64,000 nt of DNA from a virus (IMGVR_UViG_3300042878_001341:14963-78962); one strand, 5' to 3'. Positions 21,567 through 48,692 are shown, counted from the first letter of the stretch. Numbers and translations: made by a program. Notes: generated from the letters alone by a model not told the origin.

Positions 21567-23405
21567 ATGGCTGAGAAAAAAATATCCTACACAACCAGAG
21601 ATTTTCAGGGAATAAGAACTGAGTTAATAAACTTTACACGAACTTATTATCCTGATTTGGTACAAAACTTTAACGACGCTGGGGTTTTCTCAGTAATGTT
21701 AGATCTAAATGCTGCCGTTACAGATAACCTACAATTCAATATTGACAGAAGTATCCAAGAAACGGTATTACAATACGCTCAACAAAAATCTTCAGTATAT
21801 AATATCGCTAAGACTTACGGGTTAAAAATACCGGGTCAAAGACCTTCAGTGGCATTAGTTGATTTTTCAATAACGGTACCTGCATTTGGTGATAGAGAAG
21901 ATTTAAGATATTGTGGAATCCTAAGAAGAGGATCTCAAGTAAATGGTGCAGGACAACCATTTGAAACGGTTTACGACATTGATTTTGCATCTGCAATTAA
22001 TGCGGAGGGAACTTTAAATAGATTAAAAACTCCTAACTTTGATGCTAATGGTAAATTATTAAACTATACTATTACAAAAAGGGAAGTTGTTGTTAATGGA
22101 TTTACAAAAGTATTCAAAAGAGTTATAACTCCAAATGATGTTAAACCATTCTTTGAATTATTTTTACCTGAAAAAAATGTTTTAGGAATTACAAGTGTTA
22201 TTTTAAAAGATGGTACACAATATAACACAATACCAAACCCACAAGAATTTTTAGGTTTAGAAAATAGATGGTATGAAGTTAAGGCACTTGCTGAAGACAG
22301 AGTATTCATTGAGGACCCAACTAAAGTTTCTGACCAACCTGGTACAAAGGTTGGTAAATATATTTTAACCAATACTAAATTCACATCTGAATACACACCT
22401 GAAGGTTATTTGAAAATGACATTTGGTGGTGGTAATGTTTCTGCGGAAGAACAACTTAGAGATTTTGCAAGAACAGGAAAAGGATTTGATTTAAACAAAT
22501 ATTCAAATAACTTAGCATTAGGGGCGGCATTGAAATCAAACTCAACATTGTTCATTCAATATAGAGTTGGTGGTGGTCAAGCAACTAACTTAGGTATTAA
22601 TGTTATCAATCAAATTGGAACGGTTTCATTCTTTGTTAATGGTCCTTCAGAAAGTATTAACAGATCTGTAATCAATACGTTAAAATGTAATAATGTTACT
22701 GCGGCAATTGGAGGGGCAAACGCACCGACACTTGAAGAGGTTAGAAACTTAGTTTCATATAACTTCTCGGCACAAAACAGAGCGGTAACTATAAATGACT
22801 ACGAATCTATCATTAGAACAATGCCATCTCAGTTCGGGGCACCTGCAAAAGTTGCGATTACGGAAGAGAATAATATGATTAAGATAAAAATGTTATCTTA
22901 CGATACAAGTGGTAATTTAACCGACACTGTTTCTAATACATTAAAAACTAATGTCGCAAATTACCTTTCTAACTATAGAATGATTAATGATTATATTTCA
23001 ATTGAAAGTGCAAACCCAATTGACTTGGCAGTTAACGTTGATGTTGTGTTGGATGCTAGTCAAAACCAAGGCGCGATTGTATCTAAAATAATTGATATTA
23101 TAACGACATACTTTAGTCCTACAACAAGACAATTAGGTCAAAATGTTGTGGTATCTGAATTAAGAAGACTAATCCAAGCTGAAAATGGGGTTGTAAGTAT
23201 TTCTGATATGGAATTCTTTAATAAGGTTGGAGGTCAGTATTCTTCAAATCAAACATCTCAAAAATATTCAGATCCGGCAACTAAACAAATCCAATTAATT
23301 GCCGATACAATTTTTGCTGAACCTACTCAAATTTATCAAATTAGATACCCAAACAAAGACATTAATGTAAGGGTTATCAATTTAAGTACGGTTAATTTCT
23401 CCTGA
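21567..23405 (+). CDS. Baseplate wedge gp6/gpJ-like protein
   Basis: YTTRDFQGIR, FGGG, YRVGGG, AIGGA, QNRAVTINDY motifs. Confidence 0.9.
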   Translation: MAEKKISYTTRDFQGIRTELINFTRTYYPDLVQNFNDAGVFSVMLDLNAAVTDNLQFNIDRSIQETVLQYAQQKSSVYNIAKTYGLKIPGQRPSVALVDFSITVPAFGDREDLRYCGILRRGSQVNGAGQPFETVYDIDFASAINAEGTLNRLKTPNFDANGKLLNYTITKREVVVNGFTKVFKRVITPNDVKPFFELFLPEKNVLGITSVILKDGTQYNTIPNPQEFLGLENRWYEVKALAEDRVFIEDPTKVSDQPGTKVGKYILTNTKFTSEYTPEGYLKMTFGGGNVSAEEQLRDFARTGKGFDLNKYSNNLALGAALKSNSTLFIQYRVGGGQATNLGINVINQIGTVSFFVNGPSESINRSVINTLKCNNVTAAIGGANAPTLEEVRNLVSYNFSAQNRAVTINDYESIIRTMPSQFGAPAKVAITEENNMIKIKMLSYDTSGNLTDTVSNTLKTNVANYLSNYRMINDYISIESANPIDLAVNVDVVLDASQNQGAIVSKIIDIITTYFSPTTRQLGQNVVVSELRRLIQAENGVVSISDMEFFNKVGGQYSSNQTSQKYSDPATKQIQLIADTIFAEPTQIYQIRYPNKDINVRVINLSTVNFS

Positions 23406-26400: not shown

Positions 26401-28952
26401 CAACAGGAACAACATCAATAGTTGTTGAATGGGCTGACCCATCAAACATCAATAACCCAAATCCTAACCAATCAAATGTTATTATTACTCAACCTGTGAT
26501 TTCAAATGTTCCATCATCAACCGCTGGTGATGAAGTTGGATACTTACAATACCCCACAGATGTGGAATATTATCAAATGATAACGGGTATGACCGTAATC
26601 AATTTCTTGGCGTTATGTGGGTCTAGCTCAGGTACTTTCCCAACGAGTGCATTTTTAAGACATAGAATAGAATTTGTATATTGTTGTGACGGTAGTTATA
26701 ATACTTATGATGCTGGACAAGCTTTAGGACAAATGACAAACTATGAAAATTTTGAAATTATTATTTTAAACAGAGGGGTTGACGTTCATACTGCACCACA
26801 AAAAATAAAATACGATTTATCAAGAATATTTGGTAAATCATATGGTAATGTTATTACTGATGAGGGTGATTTTTATTTAAATGTACCTATACAACCAACA
26901 GGATTAAAACCTGCAACTCATAACACATCTACAAACTCGGCAACTAATCTTTATTTTCCATCATATAACTTTAACATAGGACCTGCGGATGGTTCTAACC
27001 CTAATTACACTGCTTTTACTTCGGATTATCCTTATTATTATTTATCTACAGATGATCTTAGTGTAGTTGCCGATTACCAACCCTATACTTCATGGCAATT
27101 TATTGGGTCTTCTTCATTAACTAGTACTCCAAGAACAATATTATCAAATAATGATTACACATTACCAAGACAACAAAGTGATTATATTGGTGGTGGGACA
27201 TTTATAGCCTCTATAAGTAACGGTTCATATCCAAATTGTGATAATGATAGTCATAATGGAGTTACTCCTAATGATGGAGATGCCGCTAAAGGAGAAATAG
27301 GAGTGCCTCCACCTCAATTAAATGCGTTGTATTCTCCTGCATATTATAGATATGGTTTACCTGGAGTTAATTTTAATGATAAAACTAAGATGGTTATGAG
27401 AAGTGACCGTTTACCAACATCTACAAAAACTGAAGATGGCCCTGGATCTTATAAAACTGGTTATGCGTTACACCAAAATAATAATTTCACATTCTATACT
27501 GCTGATGGAACTGCCTCAACATCTGGAACAAATTTAGAGTCTGATTTGGCTTCAGGTAACCAACTTGATTTACCTGATAATATTGGATCAATTACATCTA
27601 CGTTAACTTGTGATAATATGGTTTCGTTACAATGTTATCAAGGTTCGGGTAATGACGTGACAGTTATACCTCCTGATCAGTGTATTGTACCTGAAAATAG
27701 AGTTAAAAAAGGATGTTATTGTTTATTAAATAAAAAGTACCTTACAGAATATGATGAAGACGTAAAACTATTCTTAGAGTGGAAAACAAGGTTTACAATT
27801 ACCTTTGCTGCTTGTCGTGGAGTGTTTGCTCAGGTCTTCCAAAACAATTGGATAAACGGAGTTTTATATATGTATGCGTTCAATAAAACATCAACATATA
27901 CAATACAAGATCCTAATACTCCTACTTATAATTATTGTGATGATGTAATCATTTTTAATGAATTAAATAATGGGTTTTATTATAGATCGTCACCATGGAA
28001 AGAAAGTTCACAACAATTTATTGGTAAAAATAAACCTTTGATTAATCCAAATTGGCCATCATCAATAGTTAATGGATATCCAGGGTTAGGTTATAATGAA
28101 AAACAAATTCAATTCCCAACAACAATTGCGGATTTAGGACCAAGAGATCAATTCATTACTGAAATATGTAATAACTCAAATTTTAATGGTTATTTGGTTG
28201 ATCAAGTCAAATCAACCTCATATCAAGATACGTCTGATTTAATACAGGTTGGATTTTTATCAAGATTACTAAATGATACGTTTAGACAGGCTATATTACC
28301 TATATCAAGTGGTGGGGGTAATACGGAAGGAAAAGGTATAATCCAATTCTTTAATAGTGGTAGAAAAGGAGATAGAATTGATGGTGATTTTGCTCAAGCT
28401 CTATCAATAAATTCTGAATGGAAAATGAATCCGTTTATATTTGAAAATTACCCTAACCCAGATTCAATTTATTTTGGAAATGACAATCAGTCTCCTGCAA
28501 GACCTGTTTTTGGAATTTTATTTGAAACTCCAACCGAGGAGTATAAATATAGAAGAAGGTTTACTCCTGGTGTTGAAACATATAGTCAATCACCATTAAT
28601 ACAAGATTATTATGGGTATCCAAAAACTCAAGATGTACCACATTATCAATGGATAATAGATTCATCACCAAATATATTTGGTTCTGAAAATAATAATTGG
28701 TATACGGGTGGTCCTCAATTTTTCCATAAGGGATATCAAAATTTGGATTTCAATGTTGATCCATATTTCCAATCTTCAACAACTAAATTGGGTATGATAA
28801 CTAATTTTGATGTTAGTGGACAACCATTACCAACACCACAAGTATCGTCACAAGTTATAGTTGGGGCACCATTCCATTTTTATTTTGGATTAAATAATGG
28901 TAAAACCGCAATTGATAAATTTGTTAAATTATATGTAAATAACGAGGGATAA
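23478..28952 (+). CDS. 1824-aa structural protein: N-terminal carboxypeptidase-regulatory-like beta domain, internal hydrophobic helices, Cys-rich segments
   Basis: YGVVVGRV..LPNAKVSIF..TNDSGDYMIFGVP; ~110-aa hydrophobic block; preceded by TATTTAT at 23456; follows gp6. Confidence 0.6.
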   Translation: MPKSYRIRTQVGVDKYINVKLDQDFDFLEILSLKINQSDLYTKVCSDYGVVVGRVVVNGGFGLPNAKVSIFIPLTPEDELNPTISELYPYKTLSDNNEAGYRYNLLPHDPSYSVHSATGTFPNREEVLIDQTYIEVYDKYYKYTVKTNDSGDYMIFGVPIGTQNVFMDVDLSDIGCFSLTPQDLINAGQATETQVNGSTFKKSTNLSELPQIKTLNKNVDISPLWGQEDICQIGITRVDFDLTNEANVTIRPNAILMGSIISTTNEDALKTSCKPKNNTGNLCELIAGPGQILSIRQTIYPDKNNFPVLEEHKFEQDGKIIDGDGSFLANVPMNLDYIITNEFGEQVISNDPTKGIPTKGRYRFKFKWNNEGGLQNEFQRANFLVPNIKEHGWVSSSTDPFDPNSTTPFSIIMLSTFPVNPPQYTGSTTAASNGGLLFEDSVNSKNFTIYIDDGSGPQPYYGDISVIPVNAGDIVLAVSEPIDNTQQQEVNFTFYPQNYFDLLRSYSFSLDWDDYVDPLSAINCEDTFYEMNYNKVYTTAMFLDRYKNGVSRARHLGIKEIDNRTCKSTVNTFPSNDIIRNFDIIFFIFNILINVLTFPLLVLLFVAHFIAWAWPVLKYLLIVLGIYFAYDAIRDMIDWINSLIEVFAFAPLGGPVINFGLILRIAAQALSFIFRLALSIAFIIFTVKFLLKIKNFPRIGLPMISYPECTSCDCDCGPATLEDDIDANSVNDQIAAQQSNDGVNVYLGQANGFLAPVNVPGSYDVIHPNNQNNPIEDQEDLKKGPFWNGACLDGVTDSCDGDCKVPSLITAAMNQDITPEVAARGIIDYQRMFSGYDIIQSSGTVGDDIIYGDEFALYHAPQPFLFAAWDDGGRDPRDWGFPTKETFPQKLNEFNVRKKYFDGVNKIKTYVNESLGSEPFEDQIVVVLANPGTKDQMQVGKPISFNNPLTSNGYVNITGGTLNEFGNNAITGTTTTGTTSIVVEWADPSNINNPNPNQSNVIITQPVISNVPSSTAGDEVGYLQYPTDVEYYQMITGMTVINFLALCGSSSGTFPTSAFLRHRIEFVYCCDGSYNTYDAGQALGQMTNYENFEIIILNRGVDVHTAPQKIKYDLSRIFGKSYGNVITDEGDFYLNVPIQPTGLKPATHNTSTNSATNLYFPSYNFNIGPADGSNPNYTAFTSDYPYYYLSTDDLSVVADYQPYTSWQFIGSSSLTSTPRTILSNNDYTLPRQQSDYIGGGTFIASISNGSYPNCDNDSHNGVTPNDGDAAKGEIGVPPPQLNALYSPAYYRYGLPGVNFNDKTKMVMRSDRLPTSTKTEDGPGSYKTGYALHQNNNFTFYTADGTASTSGTNLESDLASGNQLDLPDNIGSITSTLTCDNMVSLQCYQGSGNDVTVIPPDQCIVPENRVKKGCYCLLNKKYLTEYDEDVKLFLEWKTRFTITFAACRGVFAQVFQNNWINGVLYMYAFNKTSTYTIQDPNTPTYNYCDDVIIFNELNNGFYYRSSPWKESSQQFIGKNKPLINPNWPSSIVNGYPGLGYNEKQIQFPTTIADLGPRDQFITEICNNSNFNGYLVDQVKSTSYQDTSDLIQVGFLSRLLNDTFRQAILPISSGGGNTEGKGIIQFFNSGRKGDRIDGDFAQALSINSEWKMNPFIFENYPNPDSIYFGNDNQSPARPVFGILFETPTEEYKYRRRFTPGVETYSQSPLIQDYYGYPKTQDVPHYQWIIDSSPNIFGSENNNWYTGGPQFFHKGYQNLDFNVDPYFQSSTTKLGMITNFDVSGQPLPTPQVSSQVIVGAPFHFYFGLNNGKTAIDKFVKLYVNNEG

Positions 28953-36600: not shown

Positions 36601-36634
36601 GGGGATAAATTTTGACATAACTTGTAATCAATAA
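33617..36634 (+). CDS. Baseplate wedge protein with P2 gpI/T4 gp7-like domain
   Basis: IPSQLLKNLAMTLGWD..LFKSKGTRKSIEILLRLIG matches the gpI-type KGT motif. Confidence 0.65.
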   Translation: MAVTKYTCPPQTPSGQGTFSDNLVGLQLVDGGGFTQANFEFTTSITEKQDRNFSIGAFSEPISLDSLNIQSITESRLIQANNFKVYPNFDLSQVTNFTLYGSLVKRISTSISHIINFFPAALEITSTLPNYSTTETALNIQYDPVEDETTFDVLINSLRNPFDIDYSSNSNRNFELLEIEVSSLRNFTLNYPKYSLFINGGEYPFIFYSPSNNTSTTLNFVVKGNPFSGNSISYDTVLIRPNDMYVNKTFNEAMDEVEQFLLNRSITPIYTSTFTVPRENEDGTVYLTTQAITFPKNGQWNLDITSLAFDNYLTTLNDFAANLDLYRTNLISRFLTTGAIKEFDTPDQKIEKVLQIYGRSFDETKKFISALSNMNNVNYNVKNDIPSQLLKNLAMTLGWDTNISPITNDQLLDSVFSTGTNEFSGLSVGMTPEELNYQYYRNLILNSAYLFKSKGTRKSIEILLRLIGAPEALIEFNEYIYIADQKINIEEFNGQYANLSGGTYTQQLPILDTTDIYSIQGQQFTGFTTTSIISDVNVFPEDYPIDNFGYPTMPSVSDSYFFQIGGGWFESTPQHRMPEQVDSTNSVFIGSNPNYQTTLLPFNYGEQYLQRYRTFPYMTLGYKLRRVVDNKKSWTDTDDGLRTNFDGGFNAYYPVGDDKLVVNVKNVDIFMNPAQGLVYDVWTMSRQYNYPIPNEGLNYIEPTRCNPTPNTPYPERGGIDWTEIKPKPKEKTFFEFAQTFWHNTINVRNRQFITDGKTGGYPTLQSIYWKYLESGQAINVPNDNFTYQTMIDYVNGLGTYWIKLIEQMVPATTIWNTGTKLENSIFHRQKFVWRRQMGCQLVPVPCDPCYAIGQLVPFDCPIQSVNCPIYPWGSDPLINSFGSVLGQVLTTYLDNNGYDLNNDCLANTITSEWYVDVRLNGTQIVDYKFFDGYGYSVSGTSFPTQVNWLNALYDSLPQMINEGLTFNIDETTNIVTIYNNNCVSLNDENNLELNVGINFDITCNQ

Positions 36635-39600
36635 TGGGGTTAATTAATATAAATGGGTTTTCCATAACTGGAGATTGTACAAACGAGGGATTAGGCGAAA
36701 TTATTTTTTCGGTAACAGGAGATAGTCCTAATTGGTTAGTTACTGAAACTCCCACCGCAGATGTTAATTTACCAACATCTGCATTAACTGTATTTGATAA
36801 TGTTTATTATTACTCAGGTTTAAGTGCCGGTAGTTACTTTTTAAATGTCTATGACTCAACATATACTAATTATATTGTTGTTAATTTCTATATATCTTCG
36901 GGTACCTGTGTATCAATTAATACGACAGACACTACTTGTGGATTTGATAATGGGGGTATAACTGCGACAACACAAACGGTATATGGTAACGGTGGAACCT
37001 TTACGTTATATGATATTAATGATAATTTCATCTCAAGTGGAACTTCAGTAAGTAATGAATATGTTTTCCCACCTGTACCTTCAGGAATTTACTACGTTAT
37101 TGCCAATGACGGTGGTGGATGTACAGGTTGTAGTGAATCATGTGTAGTTAGAGAGTCATTTCCATTTGATTATGGTTATTACGTTGTTAATGACGGAAGT
37201 TGTATAGGTAGTGATGGTAGTGGTAAAATATTTTTAACGGGTTTATCAGACCCAAGTCTATATACTGTTAATTGGTTAACGAGTGTTAATGGTCAAACAG
37301 GGACTACGGTGACAGGTTTGACTGAAGGTTTATACAACGTTCAGGTAACTAATCAGGATGGTTGTGTATCAACTAAAACAATAACAGTTACCGGGGTAGA
37401 TCCGTTAGGAATTGGTGGTTTTATGACATATCCACCAACTTGTTTCACTAATGATGGGGAAATAACCATTATTATTACGGGGGGTACTGCGCCATATTAT
37501 ATTGGATGTTCAAACGGTGATAGCGCGATAATTTTTAATAATGAATATACATTTACTGATTTATTTTCGGGAACGTATAATTTTAATATTATAGATGCTG
37601 GTCTCTGTAAAGTGTCGGGAACAACATCTATTAATACGTCAAATAGTTTTCAAGTATTAAGTGTTGATACGACAAATTCAATGTGTAATGACAATTCAGG
37701 ATCAGTTACAATTACGTTAATTGGATCAGGATATTATACGTATAGTTTAACGGATTCATTACATGATACAACAAGTTTTGGTCCTACAACTAATATAGTT
37801 CAAGTATTTGATACGTTGTCTTCAGGTGATTATGATTTAGTTATTACCGATGGAGTTTGTGATTATGAAACAACAATTACAATTCATAATACTGAAAAAT
37901 TTACAATCTCGGCTATAACTGAAGATACTACTTGCGGGTTAAATAATGGGTCAATACAATTATTAGCAAGTACAGGTGGAACTTTACCTTATCAATATGA
38001 AATAACAGGTTTTCCACCATCCTCAACGACTACATTTAATAATTTAGCGTCTGGTAATTATGTTGGAACAGTTACAGATAATACGGGTTGTTCTCAAAGT
38101 TTAAATATATTTGTTAATAACTCTAATGGTGTCTTTTTTGATTTAGTTGTTGACCAACCAACAAGTGGGGATAATGGTCAAATTGAAACTATTATATATG
38201 ACGGAACACCTATATTCACCTATGATTGGAGTCCTAATGTTAATGGTCAAACAGGGACTACGGTGACAGGTTTGACTGCGGGTACCTATAGTTTAGAGGT
38301 AACAGATTCAAGTGGATGTACATTAACAAAAACTGTGACTTTATCAGGTACTGAAAAAAAATTAAGTTATCAAACATATAATATATGTAATGATAATTTC
38401 CAAAATACTGGAATACTCGGTAAAAGAGGTATGCAACAGATGTTAACCGAAGGGTTTAAAGATTTAACATATGATGATACAGGATGTATTTTAAATACTG
38501 CAAATTTTATTGCGGATGTAACAGTTGATGGAGAAAACACACAACAATCATTTTATGTATCGTCAGGTTTAACTGATTATCCTTCAGATTATGTGTGGGG
38601 TGAAACATTAACTGAACTTTTACAAAGTTATAGCGGAATTAGTAAAGTTGAAATTAATTACTCAACTAATGAGATTAAAATTTATAACAAATGTGTGGAA
38701 ATAGACGGGTGTCAACCTGAAACAATTTATTATTTGTCTGATGCGAATATTGTAATTAATCTAAAATTAGAATACAATATTTCTTGTCAACAATGTATTA
38801 CAACCCCAACTCCAACCCCAACTCAAACTTTAACTCAAACTCCAACACAAACACAAACGCAAACTCCTACACAAACCCCAACTCAAACTTTGACTCAAAC
38901 ACCAACTCCTACGCAAACACAAACGCCAACACCAACTCAAACTTTAACTCAAACACCAACTCAAACACAAACACCTACGCTAACCCCAACTCAAACTTTG
39001 ACTCAAACACCTACACCGACTCAAACAGAAACTCAAATACTTACACCTACACCTACGCCAACACCGACCCAAACTGAGACTCAAACGCCTACGCCAACAC
39101 CAACTCAAACAGAAACTCAGACTCCTACGCCAACACCAACCCAAACAGAAACTCAGACTCCTACGCCAACACCAACCCAAACACCAACACCAACTTATCC
39201 TGATACGGAATTTTTACAACTACAAAATATTATTGGTACAGATCCAATGATTGTGTCTTTTAAAACCGCACCAGATAGTAGTTTTAATATAAATTGGGGG
39301 GATGGGTCATCAGAATTTGTTAATATAACTGATCCACCGTACAATCCTACTTTTAGTGCGTATACCTATACTCATAATTATGTAGGTAGTTTAAACACTG
39401 CGATTTTTGAAGACTTCCGAGTGTCATCATCATTATCAACTGACAATATTCGTGAGATTTATTTAGCAAATGTTTCAGATATTATTGAAAATGTTTATAC
39501 TTTTAGTGCATTTACTGCTTCAACTAAATTAACTTTAACGGCTTGTACTTTAACTGAGTTCAATTCTAGCTTACCTAATACTCTTGTGAGATTTTACATA

Positions 39601-40875
39601 TATAACAATTACGCACCATCAACTCAATACTTTAATTTTAATCCAACAACAAACTTAGCATTATTACCTAGTTTTGTAGAGTTAATTATTTCAAATACTG
39701 ATATGTCAGGGTTTACATATGATTTTTCAGGAAGTAGTTCATTACAAACTCTTCAGTTAACTAGTAATAATAGTTTAACAAACTTGAATATGACAGTTCC
39801 GACAGGGTCATCGTTTTTTCAATTTTGGGTATTCGGTAATACTTCGTTATCGGCATTAACAGTTAATAATAATTTATCGGATTGTATAAATCTTAATGAT
39901 ATACGAGTATATGGAAATACAGCATTAACAGGTTGGACTTATATATTACCAGTGGCTGCAGATAACGTACAATTAAATTCAAATAGAATCCGTAATTTTG
40001 ACATTGATTTATCGGCAAATACAAATTTAACTGATTTAAATTTAAATAGTAATCTTGTTTTAAGTTCATTCACAAATAGTATATCTGCATGTACATCATT
40101 GACAGATTTAAGATTAGATAATAACAACTTAACGACATTACCTCCGATATTCCCAAATAGTATTCAAACATTAAGATTAGAATCAAATGATATAACGGGA
40201 TACACAAGTAACTTCCCTACTAGTTGTGTTTATTTTGATATGAGTGATTCTGTAGCGAGTTTACAGACTGTTCCCCAATGGTCGGTAGATTTAACGGGAG
40301 CAACGTCATTACAAACTTTCAATTTAAATAGTGTTGGGTTATCAGGATGGACAACACAATTCCCATCATCAATTAAAACAATAAGTTTTAGAAATAATCT
40401 TTTAACTGATTTTGATTTTAATTATACTACAGGTGCTACATCAATAGATTTATATTTCAACCAATTAACTGGAACAACAAATTTATCGGGACACACTTCT
40501 TTAACTGGTTTAACAATAGGAAGTAATAACTTTACAGATAGTTCTCCAATACTTGGAGGTGACTTCCCACCAACTTTAAGAACATTTGACATTGGGGGGT
40601 CACCATTATTAACAGGATGGACGACAACATTCTCAGCAATGACCAATATGTTGTCATTAAATTTCCAAGGTACCAAACTTAAAACTGCGGCGGTAGATTA
40701 CATTTTAGATGATGTTGCAACTATAGCGGTAGCAAATAATTTATATAATAAAACACTTAATTTATCCGGTACTCCTCCAAACCAACCAGAATCCCCAACG
40801 GGAGGTGTGACTAATGCTGATTATATATTACTTACAAGTTCACCATATAATTGGACAGTAACTATAACCCCATAA
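36634..40875 (+). CDS. Tail fibre/adhesin: SprB repeats, Thr-Pro linker, PKD-like motif and leucine-rich repeats
   Basis: Repeated C...G.I....GGT.PY.Y..TGL..G.Y...VTD..GC units; 132-aa TP/TQ tract; INWGDGS; LxxLxLxxNxL repeats at C-terminus. Confidence 0.75.
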   Translation: MGLININGFSITGDCTNEGLGEIIFSVTGDSPNWLVTETPTADVNLPTSALTVFDNVYYYSGLSAGSYFLNVYDSTYTNYIVVNFYISSGTCVSINTTDTTCGFDNGGITATTQTVYGNGGTFTLYDINDNFISSGTSVSNEYVFPPVPSGIYYVIANDGGGCTGCSESCVVRESFPFDYGYYVVNDGSCIGSDGSGKIFLTGLSDPSLYTVNWLTSVNGQTGTTVTGLTEGLYNVQVTNQDGCVSTKTITVTGVDPLGIGGFMTYPPTCFTNDGEITIIITGGTAPYYIGCSNGDSAIIFNNEYTFTDLFSGTYNFNIIDAGLCKVSGTTSINTSNSFQVLSVDTTNSMCNDNSGSVTITLIGSGYYTYSLTDSLHDTTSFGPTTNIVQVFDTLSSGDYDLVITDGVCDYETTITIHNTEKFTISAITEDTTCGLNNGSIQLLASTGGTLPYQYEITGFPPSSTTTFNNLASGNYVGTVTDNTGCSQSLNIFVNNSNGVFFDLVVDQPTSGDNGQIETIIYDGTPIFTYDWSPNVNGQTGTTVTGLTAGTYSLEVTDSSGCTLTKTVTLSGTEKKLSYQTYNICNDNFQNTGILGKRGMQQMLTEGFKDLTYDDTGCILNTANFIADVTVDGENTQQSFYVSSGLTDYPSDYVWGETLTELLQSYSGISKVEINYSTNEIKIYNKCVEIDGCQPETIYYLSDANIVINLKLEYNISCQQCITTPTPTPTQTLTQTPTQTQTQTPTQTPTQTLTQTPTPTQTQTPTPTQTLTQTPTQTQTPTLTPTQTLTQTPTPTQTETQILTPTPTPTPTQTETQTPTPTPTQTETQTPTPTPTQTETQTPTPTPTQTPTPTYPDTEFLQLQNIIGTDPMIVSFKTAPDSSFNINWGDGSSEFVNITDPPYNPTFSAYTYTHNYVGSLNTAIFEDFRVSSSLSTDNIREIYLANVSDIIENVYTFSAFTASTKLTLTACTLTEFNSSLPNTLVRFYIYNNYAPSTQYFNFNPTTNLALLPSFVELIISNTDMSGFTYDFSGSSSLQTLQLTSNNSLTNLNMTVPTGSSFFQFWVFGNTSLSALTVNNNLSDCINLNDIRVYGNTALTGWTYILPVAADNVQLNSNRIRNFDIDLSANTNLTDLNLNSNLVLSSFTNSISACTSLTDLRLDNNNLTTLPPIFPNSIQTLRLESNDITGYTSNFPTSCVYFDMSDSVASLQTVPQWSVDLTGATSLQTFNLNSVGLSGWTTQFPSSIKTISFRNNLLTDFDFNYTTGATSIDLYFNQLTGTTNLSGHTSLTGLTIGSNNFTDSSPILGGDFPPTLRTFDIGGSPLLTGWTTTFSAMTNMLSLNFQGTKLKTAAVDYILDDVATIAVANNLYNKTLNLSGTPPNQPESPTGGVTNADYILLTSSPYNWTVTITP
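37284..38278 (+). repeat. Pair of perfect 41-bp direct repeats (37284-37324 and 38238-38278)
   Basis: tgttaatggtcaaacagggactacggtgacaggtttgactg occurs twice, 954 bp (318 codons) apart. Confidence 0.9.
38800..39195 (+). repeat. Low-complexity Thr-Pro/Thr-Gln tandem repeat (mucin-like linker)
   Basis: About 132 codons of TPTP/TQT units, including near-identical 36-bp TQTETQTPTPTP copies. Confidence 0.95.
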
Positions 40876-40914
40876 TAAATTCACTTTTAGTTATTATCTA
40901 ATATCTTTTACTTT

Positions 40915-41889
40915 ATGGGAGATATTCTTTTTGTTACTGCACAACCTGACGTACCTTATTTTCATTGGCAAGTAAAATTGTATACTCATAATTTTATTGA
41001 GAAGGGAATTAAACCTTGTCAGATCCATGTTATTTTTGGATTACAAAAAAAACAACAACCATCACAAGGGGCATTAGAATTATGTGATTACGGATTTAAT
41101 GTTCATTTTTATGATGATGATCGTGAGAACAAATCATACATACCAAGTATAAAACCATATCTAATTTATCAATGGTTAAAAGAATATCCTGAAAACGGTA
41201 AATTATTTTTCTTACACGATTCTGATATCATCTTCAATAGATTACCAAATTTTGATAAATTACTTAATGATAATGTATCTTATTTATCTGACACGATAGG
41301 CTATATTGGTTACGAATACATTAAAGATTGTTGTGATAGATATGAGAAACAACATCCAACATCAAACAAAGAACAGTTACTCCAAGAGATGTCAGATACA
41401 ATAGGTATTGATGTTGATCTTATAAAACAAAATCAAGAAAATTCGGGTGGAGGTCAATACCTTATCAAAAATACGGATCCACTATTATGGGGTAAGATTT
41501 ATGATGATTGTACACCATTGTATAACCAAATGTTAGATTACCAAAGAAGATTCCCCATTAATCCTGGTCAAATACAATTTTGGACTGCCGAAATGTGGTC
41601 ATTATTATGGAATATGTGGAACTCAGGGTATGAAACAAAAATCACAAATGAGTTAGATTTTTCATGGGCAACTGATAGTATTGATATTTATAATCAAAAA
41701 CCAATACTACATATGGCAGGTGTGACTGACCAATTAAGAACTACGAAATTTTATAAGGGAGATTTCATAAACAGAAATCCGATTGAGGATTTAAGGAATG
41801 ACATTAATTTCTTTAATTATGTGGACAAAAATAGTTCTACGATTAAATATATTGAAGTAATGAGGTCATTTTTGGAAAAAAATAAATAA
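40915..41889 (+). CDS. GT-A glycosyltransferase resembling plant HPAT (GT95)/SERGT (GT96) protein O-glycosyltransferases
   Basis: TAQPDVPYFHWQ, YIPSIKPYLIYQWL, LHDSDIIF (DxD), FWTAEMWSLL, ILHMAG motifs in family order. Confidence 0.7.
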   Translation: MGDILFVTAQPDVPYFHWQVKLYTHNFIEKGIKPCQIHVIFGLQKKQQPSQGALELCDYGFNVHFYDDDRENKSYIPSIKPYLIYQWLKEYPENGKLFFLHDSDIIFNRLPNFDKLLNDNVSYLSDTIGYIGYEYIKDCCDRYEKQHPTSNKEQLLQEMSDTIGIDVDLIKQNQENSGGGQYLIKNTDPLLWGKIYDDCTPLYNQMLDYQRRFPINPGQIQFWTAEMWSLLWNMWNSGYETKITNELDFSWATDSIDIYNQKPILHMAGVTDQLRTTKFYKGDFINRNPIEDLRNDINFFNYVDKNSSTIKYIEVMRSFLEKNK

Positions 41890-41906
41890 CTGATTATTTA
41901 TTAGTA

Positions 41907-43235
41907 ATGGGAACTCAACCGATATCAGTAAAACCAATAAATGAATGTGCGATAGTTACGTTATTTCCAATGACGGCTATATGTGATAGTGTTAATCCAA
42001 GTACTCCACAATCCTATGATGGATCAGTAAGTGTTATGGTTAGTGGTGGTACTCCACCATATAATATTACTTGGGAAGAAGGTGGATTAGGACCAACAAA
42101 ATCTAATCTTGGTGTTGGAGATTACCGAGCAACCATTGTTGATTTTTATGGTGATTTTACGGCAAATACAATATGTAGTTTAACCGCAGAAACAAGTACA
42201 ACCACAACCTCCACATCAACAACTACATTACCTGTTTACGAGGATTTATGTATGTACTTTACGGACAACAATGGTCCAAATTCAGAAACACATCAGTTTT
42301 TATTTAATGGATATTTAAATGGAAAACCTACTTGGATATCTGATGATGACTTATATAATATATATTGGAGTACAGGTACTACAAATCAATGGTTAGTTGA
42401 CGGGTGGAGTAATGGTATCATTTACAATTCAAATACATCCGTACCACCATTAACGGGGTGGCAATTCTTAGGTGGTAGTTATTCAGGGACATTTACTATT
42501 ACCGTTTCTGAGGGAACTTGTGTGGATAATCCTATGGTTAATATATTAATAAGTTACCAATCTCCAACCTGTGGTAGTAATGGTAGTATTATTGTGACGG
42601 CAAATGGAGGAACACCATCGTACCAATACTCAATTAATGGAGGAACAACATACCAATCAAGTCCTGTATTTAGTAATTTATCAAGTGGTATATATAGTGT
42701 TAAGGTTAAGGATACAAATGATGTAGCAACAACACAAAGTGTTACTTTATCAGGGCCACCACCTAATCAAACTTATCAAATAGCATTACTTTTAACGGGT
42801 CCTAACTCTTTTAACATAAATGTAACTCCTACATTACCAAGTGGGGTATATATCACTTTTGATTTAAAACATAATAGTGTATTTAAATTAGCACCTTCAC
42901 CAACCGTGGCGGTATATAATAATGTTGTCACGGTTAATGTTAATGGAAATCCGATTGCGACTCCATCACCTATGTTAAGTACAACCGCAACATTTAACCC
43001 TTGTGATTCGGGGTCTATATATACTAAAACAAATATCACTACATGGACTACGTTAACGTTTAATCCAACAAGTACCATGAGCGGTACTTTTACAAATAAT
43101 ATAAGTCCGATAACACCTTTAGTTAATTGTTATTCGGTTAGTGGGTCAAGTGAATTAGTTATTACAAATGCAAAATTATATAACTGTGATTGTTGTAATA
43201 TAACAATAAAAAACTCTAACCCTATTAGGATTTAA
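41907..43235 (+). CDS. SprB-repeat, Thr-rich structural/fibre protein
   Basis: SGGTPPYNITW..LGVGDY and CGSNGSI..GGTPSYQYSING..FSNLSSGIYSVKVKD; TSTTTTSTSTTT tract; TATTTAT 5 nt upstream. Confidence 0.7.
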   Translation: MGTQPISVKPINECAIVTLFPMTAICDSVNPSTPQSYDGSVSVMVSGGTPPYNITWEEGGLGPTKSNLGVGDYRATIVDFYGDFTANTICSLTAETSTTTTSTSTTTLPVYEDLCMYFTDNNGPNSETHQFLFNGYLNGKPTWISDDDLYNIYWSTGTTNQWLVDGWSNGIIYNSNTSVPPLTGWQFLGGSYSGTFTITVSEGTCVDNPMVNILISYQSPTCGSNGSIIVTANGGTPSYQYSINGGTTYQSSPVFSNLSSGIYSVKVKDTNDVATTQSVTLSGPPPNQTYQIALLLTGPNSFNINVTPTLPSGVYITFDLKHNSVFKLAPSPTVAVYNNVVTVNVNGNPIATPSPMLSTTATFNPCDSGSIYTKTNITTWTTLTFNPTSTMSGTFTNNISPITPLVNCYSVSGSSELVITNAKLYNCDCCNITIKNSNPIRI

Positions 43236-43287
43236 AGTATTGAAGTTAGAGGATAAAAAAATTATAAATAAACTATTTATTGATTAG

Positions 43288-45801
43288 ATGAGCTATATAT
43301 TAAAAAATACATCAGGGTTAGTTAACACTAGAATAACTGACACAGGAAGATTAAAGTTATCACAAGGTAATTTTAACATTTCATATTTCCAAATTGGGGA
43401 TAGTGAAGTGTCGTATAATGAATTACCAAACACTTACAATCAATTTAATAGTGTAGTTTTAGAACCAAGTTTTAATAGTCAAAATAGTGCCGGATCTCCT
43501 GAATCAAACAAACAAAATATTAAATATCCATATTATGTGGATGATAATAATAGTAATACATATGGAATTCCATTTATGGATTCTGTTATTGAACCTGTTT
43601 ATAATAGAGCTCCATTAAGAGGATTTTTCACAGGTAATACAACCGCAAGTACGGTTAATTATAGTGCGTTTACAGGATCAAAGTATGTTGTAACGTCCAA
43701 TTACATTGTTGATATGTCAACATTAAATGGATCAAATCAAATAACAATAATCCAAGATATATGTGACCCAACAAACACTAATAAACCAAGTGTTGGAGAT
43801 TTCATTACAATTTATTATGATGGTTTAGCGAAATATGATTGTTCTTGTATTAATTTACCTACACCAACACCAACGGCAACAATAGGTACAACTCCTACAT
43901 TAACTAATACTCCCACTGCGTCAAATACTAATTCTGACCCATGTGCGTCTCCAACACCAACACCAACTCCATCGGCAACACCTTGTTTGACACCATCAAA
44001 CAAACCTGTTTGTCCTATACCACCTGATCCGTCATGTGTTAAACCTGTTCATTCATGTTTTCCTATATTGACATATAGGATCGTTGATATTTGTGAGAAT
44101 AATGTGACTTTGGATAGACCAACGCCTAATTATGTTGGATTAAGTTCTAATTGTTTTGGTAGAGTATTGGTATACCCACCAAATATGACTACACTATATG
44201 ATAGTATCACACCTCGTCCACATTGGGCGGATGATGTTATCAATTTTGAATCTATTTGTGATATTGATCAATTTGATGTTAAAGTATGGAATATGAATAT
44301 TCCTTGGACTGAGAGTCCTGCGGGATTAAGATCTACTGAGTATGAAGATTATACTTATTTTGGTTCCATTGATTATATTGGTAGTAAAGAATACTTTGGT
44401 TATAACTCAACCTCAGGTCAGACAGATACAAGTTATACGTATTATTACAATTCATTTGATGAAATTGTTCAAGTTAAACCTGAAGAACAAAAGGCAATTG
44501 CTATAATTCATTATACAAACCAAACTATAGATTTCTTTTATGGTGAGAAATTTGCGTTAGAACCATATAACAATTCAAATCCTGATGATACGACAGGACA
44601 AGCAAGAAACTTTAAATTACATATGCCAACATTAATGTGGCATAAAAATCCTGAGTGTTGTTATGGTCAAACATTTTGGGTTGATCCTCCGGGATTTGAT
44701 GGGAAAGATTTATTCCAAGTTGAATATATTAAGTCAACTAAGAATACTGATATGAATCAACCTGGTATTCGTTATTATCACTTGTGGGACACTAATGCAA
44801 ATGCAGATGGGTTACCAAGTAGAGTGGGTAAAGTATTCCCTGATAGTAAGTTAATTATTATTGATGACGAAGAAATAATCGCAGCATTATCATATAAATC
44901 AAATAGAAACTGGACATTAACGGCACCTCAAGTATCGTTAATTACTCCTAATACTTGTGGTGTAACCACCGCAACAACTGATGGTATTTTAACAGGTAGT
45001 AATGAAACAATGTATGTAACTTATATGTTGGGTAACTCTTATAATTTTACTAATTCATTACATTCTAATTATTATTCTAAAATTACCGGTAATAATAATG
45101 ATTGTAATCCTGACACATCTAAAAATGTGGCGGTTAGATTTGGTGCTGAATTTAAATGTTTAACACAACCTGGTTATAGTCCTTTAACGACAACAACAAC
45201 TACACATCCATTATTAACAACAACAACTACTTATTTACCGTTAACAACAACAACAACACTTTGCCCTACATTTTGTGATACACCTAATGGTTTCTTCGCA
45301 ACTAAATTCCAAGTGATTGCACAAAAAGTAGTGACAGGACAAAGACCTGATCCATCTAAATGGAGAGTTATTGATTATACTAGTTCATTAACCGCAACTA
45401 CTATAAATGGGTATATTACTGAAGAAGGTTTAACAGGAACTACATTTGTTATTACCCCTGATCTTTATAATAACGCACCGTATTACAATTTAAATAATTA
45501 TATTCCATTAACACCACTTGGTACCACAACACCAAATCTTAATTTTGGTGACGAGTACTTTTTCTACGGAGCGTTTGAAAGTGATATTCAAGCGACAATA
45601 TATGAGATGAGGTATAAAGTAAATTTAAGTTTTGCTGAATTCCAAACCACAACAAATCCTACGTGGAAAAAAGGTGGTAATTCTTACATTACTGAAATTG
45701 CGTTACTTGATAGTAATAAAGATGTTATGGTAATTTCTAAGATGCAATCACCTGTATTAAGACAAGGTATCCAACAGTTCGTTGTTAAGTTAGATCTATA
45801 A
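43288..45801 (+). CDS. Tail-collar/baseplate protein (P2 gpH N-terminal/DUF3751-like) with Thr-Pro-rich inserts
   Basis: N-terminal ITDTGRLKLSQG..YFQIGD and C-terminal ITEIALLD..VISK motifs; PTPTPT and poly-Thr tracts between. Confidence 0.6.
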   Translation: MSYILKNTSGLVNTRITDTGRLKLSQGNFNISYFQIGDSEVSYNELPNTYNQFNSVVLEPSFNSQNSAGSPESNKQNIKYPYYVDDNNSNTYGIPFMDSVIEPVYNRAPLRGFFTGNTTASTVNYSAFTGSKYVVTSNYIVDMSTLNGSNQITIIQDICDPTNTNKPSVGDFITIYYDGLAKYDCSCINLPTPTPTATIGTTPTLTNTPTASNTNSDPCASPTPTPTPSATPCLTPSNKPVCPIPPDPSCVKPVHSCFPILTYRIVDICENNVTLDRPTPNYVGLSSNCFGRVLVYPPNMTTLYDSITPRPHWADDVINFESICDIDQFDVKVWNMNIPWTESPAGLRSTEYEDYTYFGSIDYIGSKEYFGYNSTSGQTDTSYTYYYNSFDEIVQVKPEEQKAIAIIHYTNQTIDFFYGEKFALEPYNNSNPDDTTGQARNFKLHMPTLMWHKNPECCYGQTFWVDPPGFDGKDLFQVEYIKSTKNTDMNQPGIRYYHLWDTNANADGLPSRVGKVFPDSKLIIIDDEEIIAALSYKSNRNWTLTAPQVSLITPNTCGVTTATTDGILTGSNETMYVTYMLGNSYNFTNSLHSNYYSKITGNNNDCNPDTSKNVAVRFGAEFKCLTQPGYSPLTTTTTTHPLLTTTTTYLPLTTTTTLCPTFCDTPNGFFATKFQVIAQKVVTGQRPDPSKWRVIDYTSSLTATTINGYITEEGLTGTTFVITPDLYNNAPYYNLNNYIPLTPLGTTTPNLNFGDEYFFYGAFESDIQATIYEMRYKVNLSFAEFQTTTNPTWKKGGNSYITEIALLDSNKDVMVISKMQSPVLRQGIQQFVVKLDL

Positions 45802-45851
45802 AACTTTAGTTTTATCTTCTTGTCATTATATTATAATAAAACAATCTTTGT

Positions 45852-46460
45852 ATGAGAACACCAATTAAAAATTCGCCCAAAGTTTTGGGTTTAGATATAT
45901 CAACCAAGACAATAGGGTGGGCACTTTTTGACATTCAAACTCAAGAACTATTGGAATTAACTCATGTTTCGCCAAGACCTAAAAATAAAGATACTGAGGA
46001 GAATAAAATGTTGGAATTAATCTTAAAATCTGAGGTATTCAAAACAAAATTAGAAGATTATAAGAAATTAGGTATTGTTAGTGTTATTATTGAAGAACCA
46101 TTATTAAATTCTAATAATGTTTATACAATCCAAACATTGTTAAGATTTAATACTTTAATTTGTAAAACAATTTATGATGTTTTAGGTATTGTACCTGAAT
46201 TCATATCTACTTATAACTCAAGAAAATTTGCATTTCCTGAGTTAGTTCAAGAAAACGATAAAAAGAAATACGTTTTATTTGGAGGACTCCCTAAAGACAT
46301 TGATAAGAAAATGATTATATGGGAATTGGTTGCAAAAAAAGAACCTCAGATCCAATGGCAATATACAAGAAATAATACTTTGAAGAAAGAAAACTTTGAC
46401 CAAACAGATGCTTATACTTGTGTTTTAGGTTACATGAGAAGTAAGGAAATTTGGAAATAA
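45852..46460 (+). CDS. RuvC-like Holliday junction resolvase
   Basis: VLGLDISTKTIGWA, IIEEP, DQTDA acidic RNase H-fold motifs. Confidence 0.75.
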   Translation: MRTPIKNSPKVLGLDISTKTIGWALFDIQTQELLELTHVSPRPKNKDTEENKMLELILKSEVFKTKLEDYKKLGIVSVIIEEPLLNSNNVYTIQTLLRFNTLICKTIYDVLGIVPEFISTYNSRKFAFPELVQENDKKKYVLFGGLPKDIDKKMIIWELVAKKEPQIQWQYTRNNTLKKENFDQTDAYTCVLGYMRSKEIWK

Positions 46461-46486
46461 CCTACTTAAAAATACTGTTAATATAG

Positions 46487-46515
46487 ATATCGTCTAAAAA
46501 GACGATATTTTTTTT
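46487..46515 (+). terminator. Terminator between convergent genes
   Basis: ATATCGTC-taaaaa-GACGATAT plus T8. Confidence 0.75.
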
Positions 46516-46526
46516 ACCTAATAATT

Positions 46527-48692
46527 TTAAAGACAAAGACCAATATTGGTGATCACAACAAATTTTGATGTGGATGTTGGTAATATTGATGAACATATTT
46601 TTAATGATGAATAACCATTAATATTTACTTCCGTTAGAGTACCGGTACTACATGGACTATATGTAAATGGTTGAGGACTAATATATGAGTTCTCAATTAA
46701 ATAGGTGTAACAAGTTGGTGTGGGTTTTGTTGGGGTAGGTGTTGGAGTACTTGTCATTGTTGGTGTGGGAGTCGGAGTATTTACAAAAACACATTGTGAA
46801 CACACACCTTCTGATTCAGGTCCTAATATATCTGTTAAAATTATAGTACTAACACCGGCAACATCACTAACAAACCCATCATAGGTTATACAAGTTGAAA
46901 TTCCATTAACAAATGATTGATACACATAACCTTCAGATGGAGTTTCACCAAAAGGATCTAAAACAACGTCTGTTGTATAATAAAAGAATCCTGTATTACA
47001 TTCCTTAAAACGTTTACTACCATTACATCTAATATAATCATCAAATGTGTTGAATACCACCGATCCGTCAAAATTACAATTATATTGTGGTGATGCGGTT
47101 GGCGTTGCAATCATTTTAGCATTTGTTGCGGTAGGTGTTGGTGTTAAAACATTTGCGGTAACGGATATTCCTTTACCACCACAAATTTCGGTTGACGTTG
47201 GTGTTGGTGTGGGGGTTGGTGTTGGAGTTCCTGTAACGGTTGCCGTTGGGGTTATAGGTAACTCACAATCAAACACCACATCAAAAGATATTGGTTGACA
47301 ATAATCAGTTGGTGTAGGAGTTGGTGTTGGACAAGGACCTCCATTAAAGAAATCTTCACATAAATCAGGGCACTCAGTATAACAAGGAGATGGCCCAAAT
47401 AAAAGACATTCACCATCTAATGCGTCTGACAAACACCAACGATTATCAGTTGATGAAAAATAAATAAATAATCCACTTGTTGAACCGTACCAAAATAATT
47501 GACTATTCCATGTTCCACCACTTAGATATGTATCATCATAAGTAACATCACCTGTGTTAATACAATAGTATTCAAACGGACATGGGATTGGGGGTGGAGT
47601 TGGTGTCTGTGTTAGTGTTGGTGTTGGTGTTGGTGTATTTGGTACTATTACAATATCTGCACATTCTGGAGCTTGTGACGCTCCAAATATTGTATTTGGT
47701 GCGTTTTGTGTAAATGTTAGGGTGTATGGTGATGATAATGAAAAATTATATATGGCCCCATTACTATTACAAACATATAAATCACCTGATGTCATAAACA
47801 TCCCCCAAGGGTTTGCTATTGTGGGACTAACTAATACATCCACCTCAATATTTCCTGTTGTGTAGTCATGTTGGGTTATATATCTATTTGCGCCTGATCC
47901 ATTATATGAACAAATTAATTTATTAGGTGGTGAATAAGTGTAAACCATATCGCCAGCAATAACTCTTCCTGATGGCATTGGAAATTTGGTGGTAAATACT
48001 GCGGTTGAAGTTGTTATATCTATTTCAATTATATTACCACCAAGACTACTACTTACTAATGTTGTATTATCAATTACGCCTAAACCATCACCAATCGGAG
48101 ACGGTAGAGTTATATTTCTACTAAACGATGCGGAAAACGGACATAACGTTATGTCGTACTCCTTAAGTATAGTTCCACTATACATCCATAATTTTGTGGT
48201 TGTATGGGCAATATCACTAGAATTTAGAGTTGGTGTAAAATAAGATGTGATATTTCTAGTTGTATTTGTTGAAAATACATATCCATATATTAAGGTACCG
48301 GCATTAAAAATAATATCACAAGTGTCCAAACAATATGGTGATGTAGGTGTTGGTGTACTTGTTAACGTTTGTGTAGGTGTAGGTGTACTTGTTAGAGTTT
48401 GTGTAGGTGTTAAAGTTGGTGTTGGAGTTAACGTTTGTGTGAGTGTCGGTGTCGGTGTCGGTGTTGTACAAGGTGTAATAGTTAGTATTTTGTTGTTAAT
48501 AAGATAAGTGTTAATACCATTAGAAAAATATAAATTACTTACCGACAGTAGAGTTGTGCAAGATGGGTCCGTAAATATTCCTTGACCAAGATTTAAACTA
48601 TCACCATATACATTAATTGTGAATGGTCCCGAACATAACCCTGCCGGACTTGCATTCCCAGCTGTAAAAACTCCTAAAAAATTACACGCCAT
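46527..48692 (-). CDS. Cys-rich multidomain protein with multiple Thr-Pro linkers (putative fibre/decoration protein)
   Basis: 721 aa, at least 5 PTPTPT tracts separating Cys-rich beta domains. Confidence 0.75.
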   Translation of the reverse strand: MACNFLGVFTAGNASPAGLCSGPFTINVYGDSLNLGQGIFTDPSCTTLLSVSNLYFSNGINTYLINNKILTITPCTTPTPTPTLTQTLTPTPTLTPTQTLTSTPTPTQTLTSTPTPTSPYCLDTCDIIFNAGTLIYGYVFSTNTTRNITSYFTPTLNSSDIAHTTTKLWMYSGTILKEYDITLCPFSASFSRNITLPSPIGDGLGVIDNTTLVSSSLGGNIIEIDITTSTAVFTTKFPMPSGRVIAGDMVYTYSPPNKLICSYNGSGANRYITQHDYTTGNIEVDVLVSPTIANPWGMFMTSGDLYVCNSNGAIYNFSLSSPYTLTFTQNAPNTIFGASQAPECADIVIVPNTPTPTPTLTQTPTPPPIPCPFEYYCINTGDVTYDDTYLSGGTWNSQLFWYGSTSGLFIYFSSTDNRWCLSDALDGECLLFGPSPCYTECPDLCEDFFNGGPCPTPTPTPTDYCQPISFDVVFDCELPITPTATVTGTPTPTPTPTPTSTEICGGKGISVTANVLTPTPTATNAKMIATPTASPQYNCNFDGSVVFNTFDDYIRCNGSKRFKECNTGFFYYTTDVVLDPFGETPSEGYVYQSFVNGISTCITYDGFVSDVAGVSTIILTDILGPESEGVCSQCVFVNTPTPTPTMTSTPTPTPTKPTPTCYTYLIENSYISPQPFTYSPCSTGTLTEVNINGYSSLKICSSILPTSTSKFVVITNIGLCL

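Follow-up and report, generated by a model that had tools for sequence, protein, structure and literature searches.

A phrog_4417 glycosyltransferase encoded among threonine-rich fibre-like genes of a jumbo phage probably modifies threonine tracts of the phage's own particle proteins

What does a soluble glycosyltransferase-like protein do when its gene lies in the middle of a run of phage fibre-like genes? The question is raised by a 64,000-nucleotide stretch of viral DNA (IMGVR_UViG_3300042878_001341:14963-78962; this whole stretch is hereafter called the window), in which a gene for a 324-aa protein (positions 40915–41889, plus strand) is surrounded by genes whose products carry long threonine- and proline-rich tracts. 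An initial annotation, made from the sequence alone, likened the protein to plant hydroxyproline O-arabinosyltransferases (HPAT, GT95) and peptidyl-serine galactosyltransferases (SERGT or SGT1, GT96), and proposed that it glycosylates Thr (or hydroxyproline) in the linkers of the fibre proteins. We conclude that the enzyme, which belongs to the family phrog_4417, probably glycosylates the Thr tracts of the phage's own particle proteins. The proposal of Thr glycosylation is supported by the GT-A fold of the enzyme and by a repeated association of its gene with Thr-rich structural genes. The evidence covers the fold, the conservation of the catalytic motifs, a remote kinship, and a gene-neighbour association that includes joint gain and loss.

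The motifs on which the initial annotation relied were all located in the 324-aa protein: TAQPDVPYFHWQ at residue 8, YIPSIKPYLIYQWL at residue 75, HDSD at residue 101, WTAEMWS at residue 223, and ILHM at residue 264. The stated lack of a transmembrane segment also holds, the top 19-residue Kyte–Doolittle mean being 0.44. Neither the single sequence nor a profile gave a match in Pfam (E up to 0.1), NCBIfam, or the PDB, and the sole PDB "match", Hax3 (E 0.11), was dismissed as a repeat artefact. The only family match was phrog_4417 (E 3.9e-71, residues 6–317 on profile positions 3–289 of 293), which has no function assigned. The family comprises 1472 clusters at 90% identity and 831 representatives at 50% identity. 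An AlphaFold (AF2) model of the enzyme, built with 52 diverse relatives, reached a predicted local distance difference test score (pLDDT) of 97.3, with the catalytic domain starting at residue 4. The best solved folds by VIA Z were glycogenin (14.6), Skp1 alpha-galactosyltransferase (14.2), the UGGT catalytic domain (14.1), LgtC (13.9), and WbbM (13.7), the five being tied within one Z unit; GlyE (12.9) and the capsid glycosyltransferase A64R of chlorella virus PBCV-1 (11.4) ranked lower. More than 100 solved chains had Z of at least 8, and the best 50 listed were almost all nucleotide-sugar transferases. Foldseek agreed, with E of about 1e-7 to the same folds and 412 matches at E ≤ 0.001. Among predicted viral structures, two uncharacterised phage proteins ranked first, followed by GT8-type enzymes. 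The predicted structure identifies the 324-aa protein as a GT-A fold glycosyltransferase.

Five residues of the enzyme, D102, D104, H266, G269, and K281, are invariant among the 52 relatives. D102-S-D104 follows the beta strand 97–100, H266 lies in the strand 264–266, and H266-x-x-G269 and K281 belong to the C-terminal part; we take them together to be the metal/diphosphate site and the signature of GT8-type enzymes. The likeness to GT8 is one of fold only, as the Pfam GT8 model (PF01501) gave no match. Retaining GT-A enzymes of the GT8, GT24, and GT77 types (glycogenin, Skp1 alpha-galactosyltransferase, UGGT, LgtC, and GlyE) align over 210–240 residues at Z 12.9–14.6 and share the DxD and H-x-x-G...K elements. 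However, their identity to the enzyme is 7–12%, and about 80–110 of its 324 residues fall outside each structural alignment. Several of these enzymes glycosylate cytoplasmic protein targets, namely glycogenin, Skp1 alpha-galactosyltransferase, and GlyE, the last acting on a serine-rich repeat adhesin in the cytoplasm. A64R of PBCV-1 is a viral GT-A enzyme that modifies the capsid protein of its own virus independently of the host's secretory pathway, but PBCV-1 is a eukaryotic giant virus and A64R belongs to another enzyme family; the PBCV-1 glycans are N-linked and atypical.

A protein with this fold could in principle be catalytically dead. It might then be a Thr-tag-binding assembly factor or chaperone, and in siphoviruses the gene does adjoin the tail assembly chaperone genes. 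We regard this as very improbable, since the DxD, His, and Lys residues are invariant across relatives of 30–40% identity and fusion to other catalytic glycosyltransferase domains is frequent. Many of 89 longer relatives are such fusions, carrying Glyco_transf_7C, PF11397 GlcNAc-transferase, GT6, GT2, GT25, GT61, or O-FucT domains, as well as sulfotransferase and methyltransferase domains. The fusions to further glycosyltransferase domains fit an enzyme that builds glycans.

The likely target of the enzyme emerged from its gene neighbours in other phages. A tblastn search with the window enzyme (E ≤ 1e-5) found 77 phage records, mostly of phages with Bacillota hosts, and one Chryseobacterium phage. 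In eight cultured phage lineages, a virion protein or an adjacent protein encoded near the enzyme gene carries poly-Thr. In phiFL1A, phiCTP1, and SA2, the next gene after that for the major tail protein is the enzyme gene; in iLp84, it follows a gene for a small Thr-rich protein, which itself follows the capsid gene, and in VPE25 it is flanked by the capsid and head-tail genes. The major tail proteins of these five phages have C-termini of poly-Thr (7–12 Thr), as do the capsid proteins of phiFL1A and iLp84. In Chryseobacterium phage MA9V-3 and Lactobacillus myovirus Lpa804, poly-Thr open reading frames (ORFs) lie directly upstream of the enzyme gene. The five siphovirus tail proteins are mutually 18–25% identical, indicating that the Thr tails are borne by very different scaffolds. 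The tail families were searched with single-protein queries because this identity is too weak for a common query. In SA2 (L088 4679–4942), a small ORF in another frame overlaps the 3′ end of the major tail gene and encodes about 60 residues, almost all of them Thr; it resembles a frameshift extension through which some of the tail subunits would acquire a far longer Thr tag.

The Thr-rich tail and the enzyme come and go together. Among 32 IMG/VR loci (27 with a phiFL1A-type tail protein, 65–100% identical, and 5 with a VPE25-type one), 17 had both a Thr-rich tail and the enzyme, 15 had neither, and none was discordant. On the tree of one tail-protein family, the states of tail and enzyme changed jointly four times, and at least three of these changes are forced by well-supported branches. 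The association was also seen in the reverse direction. The enzyme family occurred in 9 of 118 viral loci chosen solely for nine consecutive ACN codons (997 kb) vs none of 118 control loci with nine GAN codons (1037 kb; Fisher p = 0.0017). All nine enzyme genes lie directly downstream of a gene for a large protein with multiple poly-Thr runs, and the nine enzymes are mutually 30–60% identical and 32–37% identical to that of the window.

A further comparison was made in bacterial genomes. Relatives of the enzyme are encoded at no fewer than 131 places in 185,579 species-representative genomes, and 80 of the loci were kept, consisting of 42 stand-alone and 38 fused forms (at least 400 aa). A T-rich neighbour was present for 32 of the 42 stand-alone forms vs 2 of the 38 fused forms (p = 3e-11), and in 28 stand-alone loci a T-rich ORF lies directly upstream of the enzyme gene. 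The link to Thr is thus a property of the stand-alone, phage-type form, which includes the window's gene. The association with Thr-rich structural genes, which the initial annotation had proposed to test, recurs in the tail-protein, ACN-run, and bacterial-genome samples. The fused forms are found in the chromosomes of Chitinophaga, Mucilaginibacter, Sphingobacterium, and Acidimicrobiia, and their substrate probably differs. Five fused forms of 451–582 aa (from Chitinophaga, Mucilaginibacter, Sphingobacterium, and Elizabethkingia) had no Thr-rich neighbours, and two of them had a Glyco_transf_7C part. The closest genomic match to the window enzyme (66% identity) is on a 5.3-kb contig, CAYGYN010000024.1, binned into a "Candidatus Woesearchaeota" metagenome-assembled genome (MAG); this is most likely a misbinned phage contig and not an archaeal gene.

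These data also bear on the possibility that the enzyme acts on DNA bases, on a host envelope polymer (for receptor masking or superinfection exclusion), or on a small molecule, the Thr-rich neighbours being incidental. The most familiar roles of phage glycosyltransferases are DNA glucosylation and serotype conversion (PMC12619734). The tied top folds include LgtC, an enzyme of lipo-oligosaccharide synthesis, and the fused chromosomal relatives are without T-rich neighbours. Moreover, the complete 275–318 kb relatives of the window's phage possess other glycan chemistry, namely 7–8 GT2 genes in two clusters and an NAD-dependent epimerase/dehydratase gene, all outside the enzyme locus (in the complete relative G001 at 218992–220652, 271701–280704, and 121854–122561; none in the window's 79-kb record). 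This chemistry might lengthen the same glycans, or it might be used for a different end. Against such a target stand the absence of discordance in the 32 loci with at least three joint gains or losses, the position of the enzyme gene directly downstream of a poly-T gene in all nine independently sampled loci, the location of the small-phage gene in head/tail modules and not in replication or lysogeny modules, and the lack of a membrane segment in the enzyme. Protein-directed retaining GT-A enzymes (glycogenin, Skp1 alpha-galactosyltransferase, and UGGT) lead the structural matches, which the initial annotation had proposed as a check, and none of the leading matches is DNA-modifying. We therefore consider a target outside the virion quite unlikely, and prefer Thr tracts of particle proteins as the acceptor.

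In the window, the enzyme gene and its surroundings are arranged as follows (LRR, leucine-rich repeat).

21567–23405, plus strand: baseplate wedge (gp6-like) gene (phrog_219, E 1.2e-25), given as context only
36634–40875, plus strand: 1413-aa fibre-like protein with SprB repeats, a T-x linker, and an LRR-like C-terminal part
38791–39216, plus strand: (T-P/Q)n tract of 142 residues inside the 1413-aa protein (aa 720–861)
40915–41889, plus strand: 324-aa predicted soluble GT-A glycosyltransferase of phrog_4417, stand-alone form
41907–43235, plus strand: 442-aa SprB-repeat protein, directly downstream of the enzyme gene
43288–45801, plus strand: 837-aa conserved protein, fold unassigned
46527–48692, minus strand: 721-aa protein with four P/T tracts

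An ORF check recovered all of the reading frames in the initial annotation (1413, 324, 442, 837, and 721 aa). Large genes on the same strand run from the baseplate wedge gene to position 45801, and the 324-aa gene is separated by 39 nt from the end of the 1413-aa gene and by 17 nt from the 442-aa gene. Both of these neighbours exceed the Pfam SprB cut-off of 28 bits (43.3 and 38.4 bits, respectively), in agreement with the description of the enzyme gene as flanked by two SprB-repeat genes; the LRR_4 match of the 1413-aa protein is weak. The 837-aa protein and a 1005-aa protein received no name from PHROG, Pfam, or NCBIfam, and PDB sequence searches with the two gave chance-level rows only. The 837-aa protein also had no tblastn match in phages, and its AF2 model (18 relatives) was of low confidence (pLDDT 41.7). 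The 721-aa protein gave a weak match only, to phrog_15511, whose function is unassigned. From the SprB/LRR-like domains and the place downstream of the baseplate wedge gene, we infer that the four neighbours are virion fibre proteins.

The tracts themselves are conspicuous. In the 142-residue tract of the 1413-aa protein, Thr occupies every second position (67 T, 31 P, and 26 Q; no Ser), and the DNA of the tract consists of tandem repeats with periods of 12–72 bases. A T/S run occupies aa 96–107 of the 442-aa protein, and the 837-aa protein combines a P/T tract at aa 190–241 with three T5–6 runs at aa 634–657, both in segments of pLDDT below 50 beside some better-scored beta stretches. In the 721-aa protein, P/T tracts are encoded at nt 48321–48485, 47571–47651, 47175–47264, and 46695–46793. 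The tracts claimed in the initial annotation are present in all four proteins. By a P/T/S window rule, only three genes among the window ORFs of at least 100 aa bear tracts, and all three are within 8 kb of the enzyme gene.

The record that holds the window has 78,962 bases and an estimated completeness of 27%. Relatives with the same locus are 274–318 kb long and 93–100% complete, indicating that the window comes from a jumbo phage, as the label "huge phage" had implied; the complete relatives have a single enzyme copy, located in the fibre module. Eighty loci were compared in this clade, with enzymes 56–95% identical to that of the window. A minus-strand P/T-rich gene occupies the equivalent place in most of them, and similarity to the 721-aa protein was detected in 65 (tblastn). 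In the 837-aa protein, the positions of the P/T and poly-T tracts are conserved across 18 relatives (consensus). The 1413-aa protein behaves differently: its similarity to every relative is limited to the first 51% (about 720 aa) and ends exactly where the T-x tract starts, and all of the relatives have something else in place of its LRR-like C-terminal half. The tract is thus a linker at a domain-swap junction, and it marks where cassettes are exchanged in a modular fibre or receptor-binding protein.

This behaviour suggests a narrower scheme, in which the enzyme's action is confined to true poly-Thr runs, here those in the 442-aa and 837-aa proteins, and the long T-P/T-Q linkers found in the 1413-aa and 721-aa proteins are ordinary flexible linkers at domain-swap junctions that stay unmodified. 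All of the co-variation data concern runs of at least five consecutive Thr, and homology of the 1413-aa protein stops at the tract as it would at a recombination linker. Strict T-rich runs are present in 59 of the 80 clade loci, which could by themselves account for retention of the enzyme. However, the residue that stays constant along the T-x tract is Thr (67 of 142 residues), the 1413-aa gene holds the directly upstream slot that is held elsewhere by the substrate gene, and mixed T/P/A/S tags adjoin the enzyme gene in some other loci. We consider restriction to poly-Thr unlikely, and the T-x linkers remain candidate acceptors.

The proposed resemblance to HPAT/SERGT enzymes stood in part. 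The Pfam HPAT model (PF23452) did not match the 324-aa protein at E up to 0.1; among its relatives, one of 52 gave a marginal match (E 0.38), none of 89 matched at E up to 0.01, and none of a further 10 matched. A search of the window's own record with PF23452 and PF23741 gave no match, the controls being equally silent. On the other hand, 18 of 30 named clusters among the language-model neighbours carry PF23452, and two bacterial genomes with the phage-type family also encode proteins above the HPAT cut-off, which the family hidden Markov model scores at 24.5 and 21.3 bits. The family profile was compared by hhalign with a profile of 22 bacterial proteins (21 with precomputed PF23452 matches and one found by the HPAT model), giving a probability of 84.6% and E 6.9e-6 over 266 columns; comparisons with single HPAT members gave 81% and 68%. 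The YxxWQ motif, the Y-x-P-x-x-K-P stretch, DxD, WxxDM, the late His, and the Lys are in register in this alignment. The enzyme family therefore appears to be a remote homologue of HPAT as represented by bacterial PF23452 proteins, with motifs in register at the profile level, whereas membership in GT95/GT96 did not hold, the protein being below the Pfam HPAT cut-off. Bacterial HPAT proteins are mostly fused to PqqD (PF05402), the peptide-recognition element of pathways for ribosomally synthesized and post-translationally modified peptides (RiPPs), and this fusion fits a peptide-directed superfamily. In a Myxococcales MAG, an HPAT-passing protein is encoded directly upstream of a phage-type family member, and in an Acidimicrobiales MAG another lies about 4 kb from a 1013-aa family fusion with F5/8 type C and PF11397 GlcNAc-transferase domains; both may be peptide (RiPP-like) glycosylation loci.

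The plant and algal HPAT and SGT1 enzymes resemble the phage enzyme in that the ordered motifs align over the full catalytic domain with PF23452 members, and their acceptors are low-complexity, Pro/Ser-rich structural proteins and peptides. They differ in possessing a type II membrane anchor and working in the secretory pathway, whereas the phage enzyme is soluble and anchorless and the more than 150 relatives scanned fall below the Pfam cut-off. The remote kinship to HPAT and the abundance of Pro in the window's tracts nevertheless raise the possibility of a plant-like reaction, in which hydroxyproline (or Ser) in Pro-rich tracts is glycosylated after prolyl hydroxylation. The 2-oxoglutarate prolyl hydroxylase family PF13640 was not found in three relatives that are 99%, 100%, and 93% complete, although it was matched in three control genomes; the search covered this hydroxylase family alone. 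In most other lineages, the partner tags consist of poly-Thr and contain hardly any Pro or none, many of them being pure poly-Thr, and the 142-residue tract lacks Ser. The hydroxyproline alternative of the initial annotation is thus disfavoured, and we give it very little credence; since PF13640 was not found in the complete relatives, Thr is the likely acceptor.

Glycosylation of Thr tracts might proceed as follows, with catalysis, the Thr acceptor, and the identity of the sugar all presumptive. A cytoplasmic, metal-dependent GT-A enzyme would be made together with the late structural genes and, late in infection, would move a sugar from a nucleotide-sugar donor to the Thr hydroxyl before or during assembly. 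It would act on low-complexity Thr tracts in freshly synthesized particle proteins. In the window, these would be the (T-P/Q)n and poly-T linkers of the surrounding SprB-type fibre-like proteins, and the 1413-aa protein encoded directly upstream would be the first candidate acceptor. The tracts would serve as genetically encoded glycosylation tags, placed between folded domains or, in small siphoviruses, at C-termini. The assembled particle would then bear a glycan coat on its exposed linkers, which could affect stiffness, protease resistance, and recognition, although the stiff, protease-resistant stalks of the initial annotation are speculative.

Several points weigh against this proposal. 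The strongest co-variation concerns pure poly-Thr tails of small Firmicute phages, and to regard the T-P/T-Q linkers of jumbo phages as acceptors would be an extrapolation from them. P/T linkers are common flexible linkers that need no modification. The 80 loci of the jumbo clade share their gene order, with P/T-tract genes within 10 kb in 77 of the 80, and this synteny makes them a single evolutionary observation. The assignment of the four neighbours to the particle is itself indirect, and the model of the 837-aa protein failed. In addition, 10 of the 42 stand-alone loci and nearly all of the fused chromosomal forms (in Chitinophaga, Mucilaginibacter, and Acidimicrobiia) are without a T-rich neighbour, indicating that the family is not tied to Thr tracts everywhere. 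A literature search found no paper on the phrog_4417 family, including its glycan, activity, or virion proteomics, and none on poly-Thr phage tags or HPAT-like enzymes in phages.

To our knowledge, chlorella viruses and a few mycobacteriophages are the only cases of demonstrated virion glycosylation; in the mycobacteriophages, it weakens recognition by antibodies. The locus described here is of the same known kind, virion self-glycosylation as in mycobacteriophages and PBCV-1, while the host range and the tag differ and, by sequence search, so does the enzyme family. Mycobacteriophage glycosyltransferases (Che8 gp110, Corndog gp38, and Myrna; Freeman et al. 2023, as summarised in PMC12363180 and PMC12619734) modify the C-termini of the phages' own capsid and tail-tube proteins in the host cytoplasm. 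As in that system, a putative pair of tag and enzyme is encoded in the structural module; the glycosyltransferase gene lies in or next to this module, between fibre-like genes in the window and among head/tail genes in the five siphovirus lineages. The systems differ in hosts and tags and probably in enzyme family. The 77 tblastn records contained no Mycobacterium phage, the carriers here infect Bacillota and Bacteroidota and include jumbo phages, and the tags are poly-Thr or T-x tracts, which in the window are internal linkers of fibre-like proteins.

We lean toward the wider view that the stand-alone phrog_4417 enzymes and their Thr-run tags constitute a widespread, undescribed self-glycosylation system of tailed phages with a portable tag, belonging to the same ancient superfamily as HPAT, SGT1, and the HPAT-PqqD fusions. 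The system may span siphoviruses and myoviruses of Bacillota, Bacteroidota phages, and freshwater and marine jumbo phages, and its tag may be a module that any capsid, tail-tube, or fibre protein can acquire. If this is true, particle glycosylation would be common in phages of lactic acid bacteria, enterococci, staphylococci, clostridia, and Bacteroidota, including phages used or considered for therapy and those that spoil dairy fermentations, with consequences for immunogenicity, stability, mucus adherence, and host recognition. It would also account for the poly-Thr tails, so far unexplained, that many capsid and tail proteins carry, and would offer a minimal, two-part cytoplasmic O-glycosylation system for bacteria, consisting of one soluble enzyme and a short tag. 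The remote kinship would connect the plant-specific extensin glycosyltransferases with a prokaryotic and viral superfamily.

The rest of the window provided minor observations. A megablast search of the phage collection with 20 kb of the window gave no match, and a promoter/terminator scan found fewer sites than in shuffled sequence and was uninformative on operon structure. A RuvC-like Holliday junction resolvase gene (phrog_827, 45852–46460) is located between the 837-aa gene and the convergent 721-aa gene, and a hairpin with an 11-bp stem followed by a T run (46485–46510) lies between the convergent ends of the genes on the 837-aa side and the 721-aa gene. Neither the 1824-aa ORF at 23478–28952 nor a partly open 1346-aa ORF at the start of the window gave a PHROG match. 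Another very large ORF, at 4562–11470 (2302 aa), has a short T/S run at aa 1677–1682. The GC content across the window is 30–34%, and the window also encodes T4-like replication functions, including a UvsX-like recombinase, a DnaB-like helicase, ribonucleotide reductase, primase, SbcCD, and a sigma factor.

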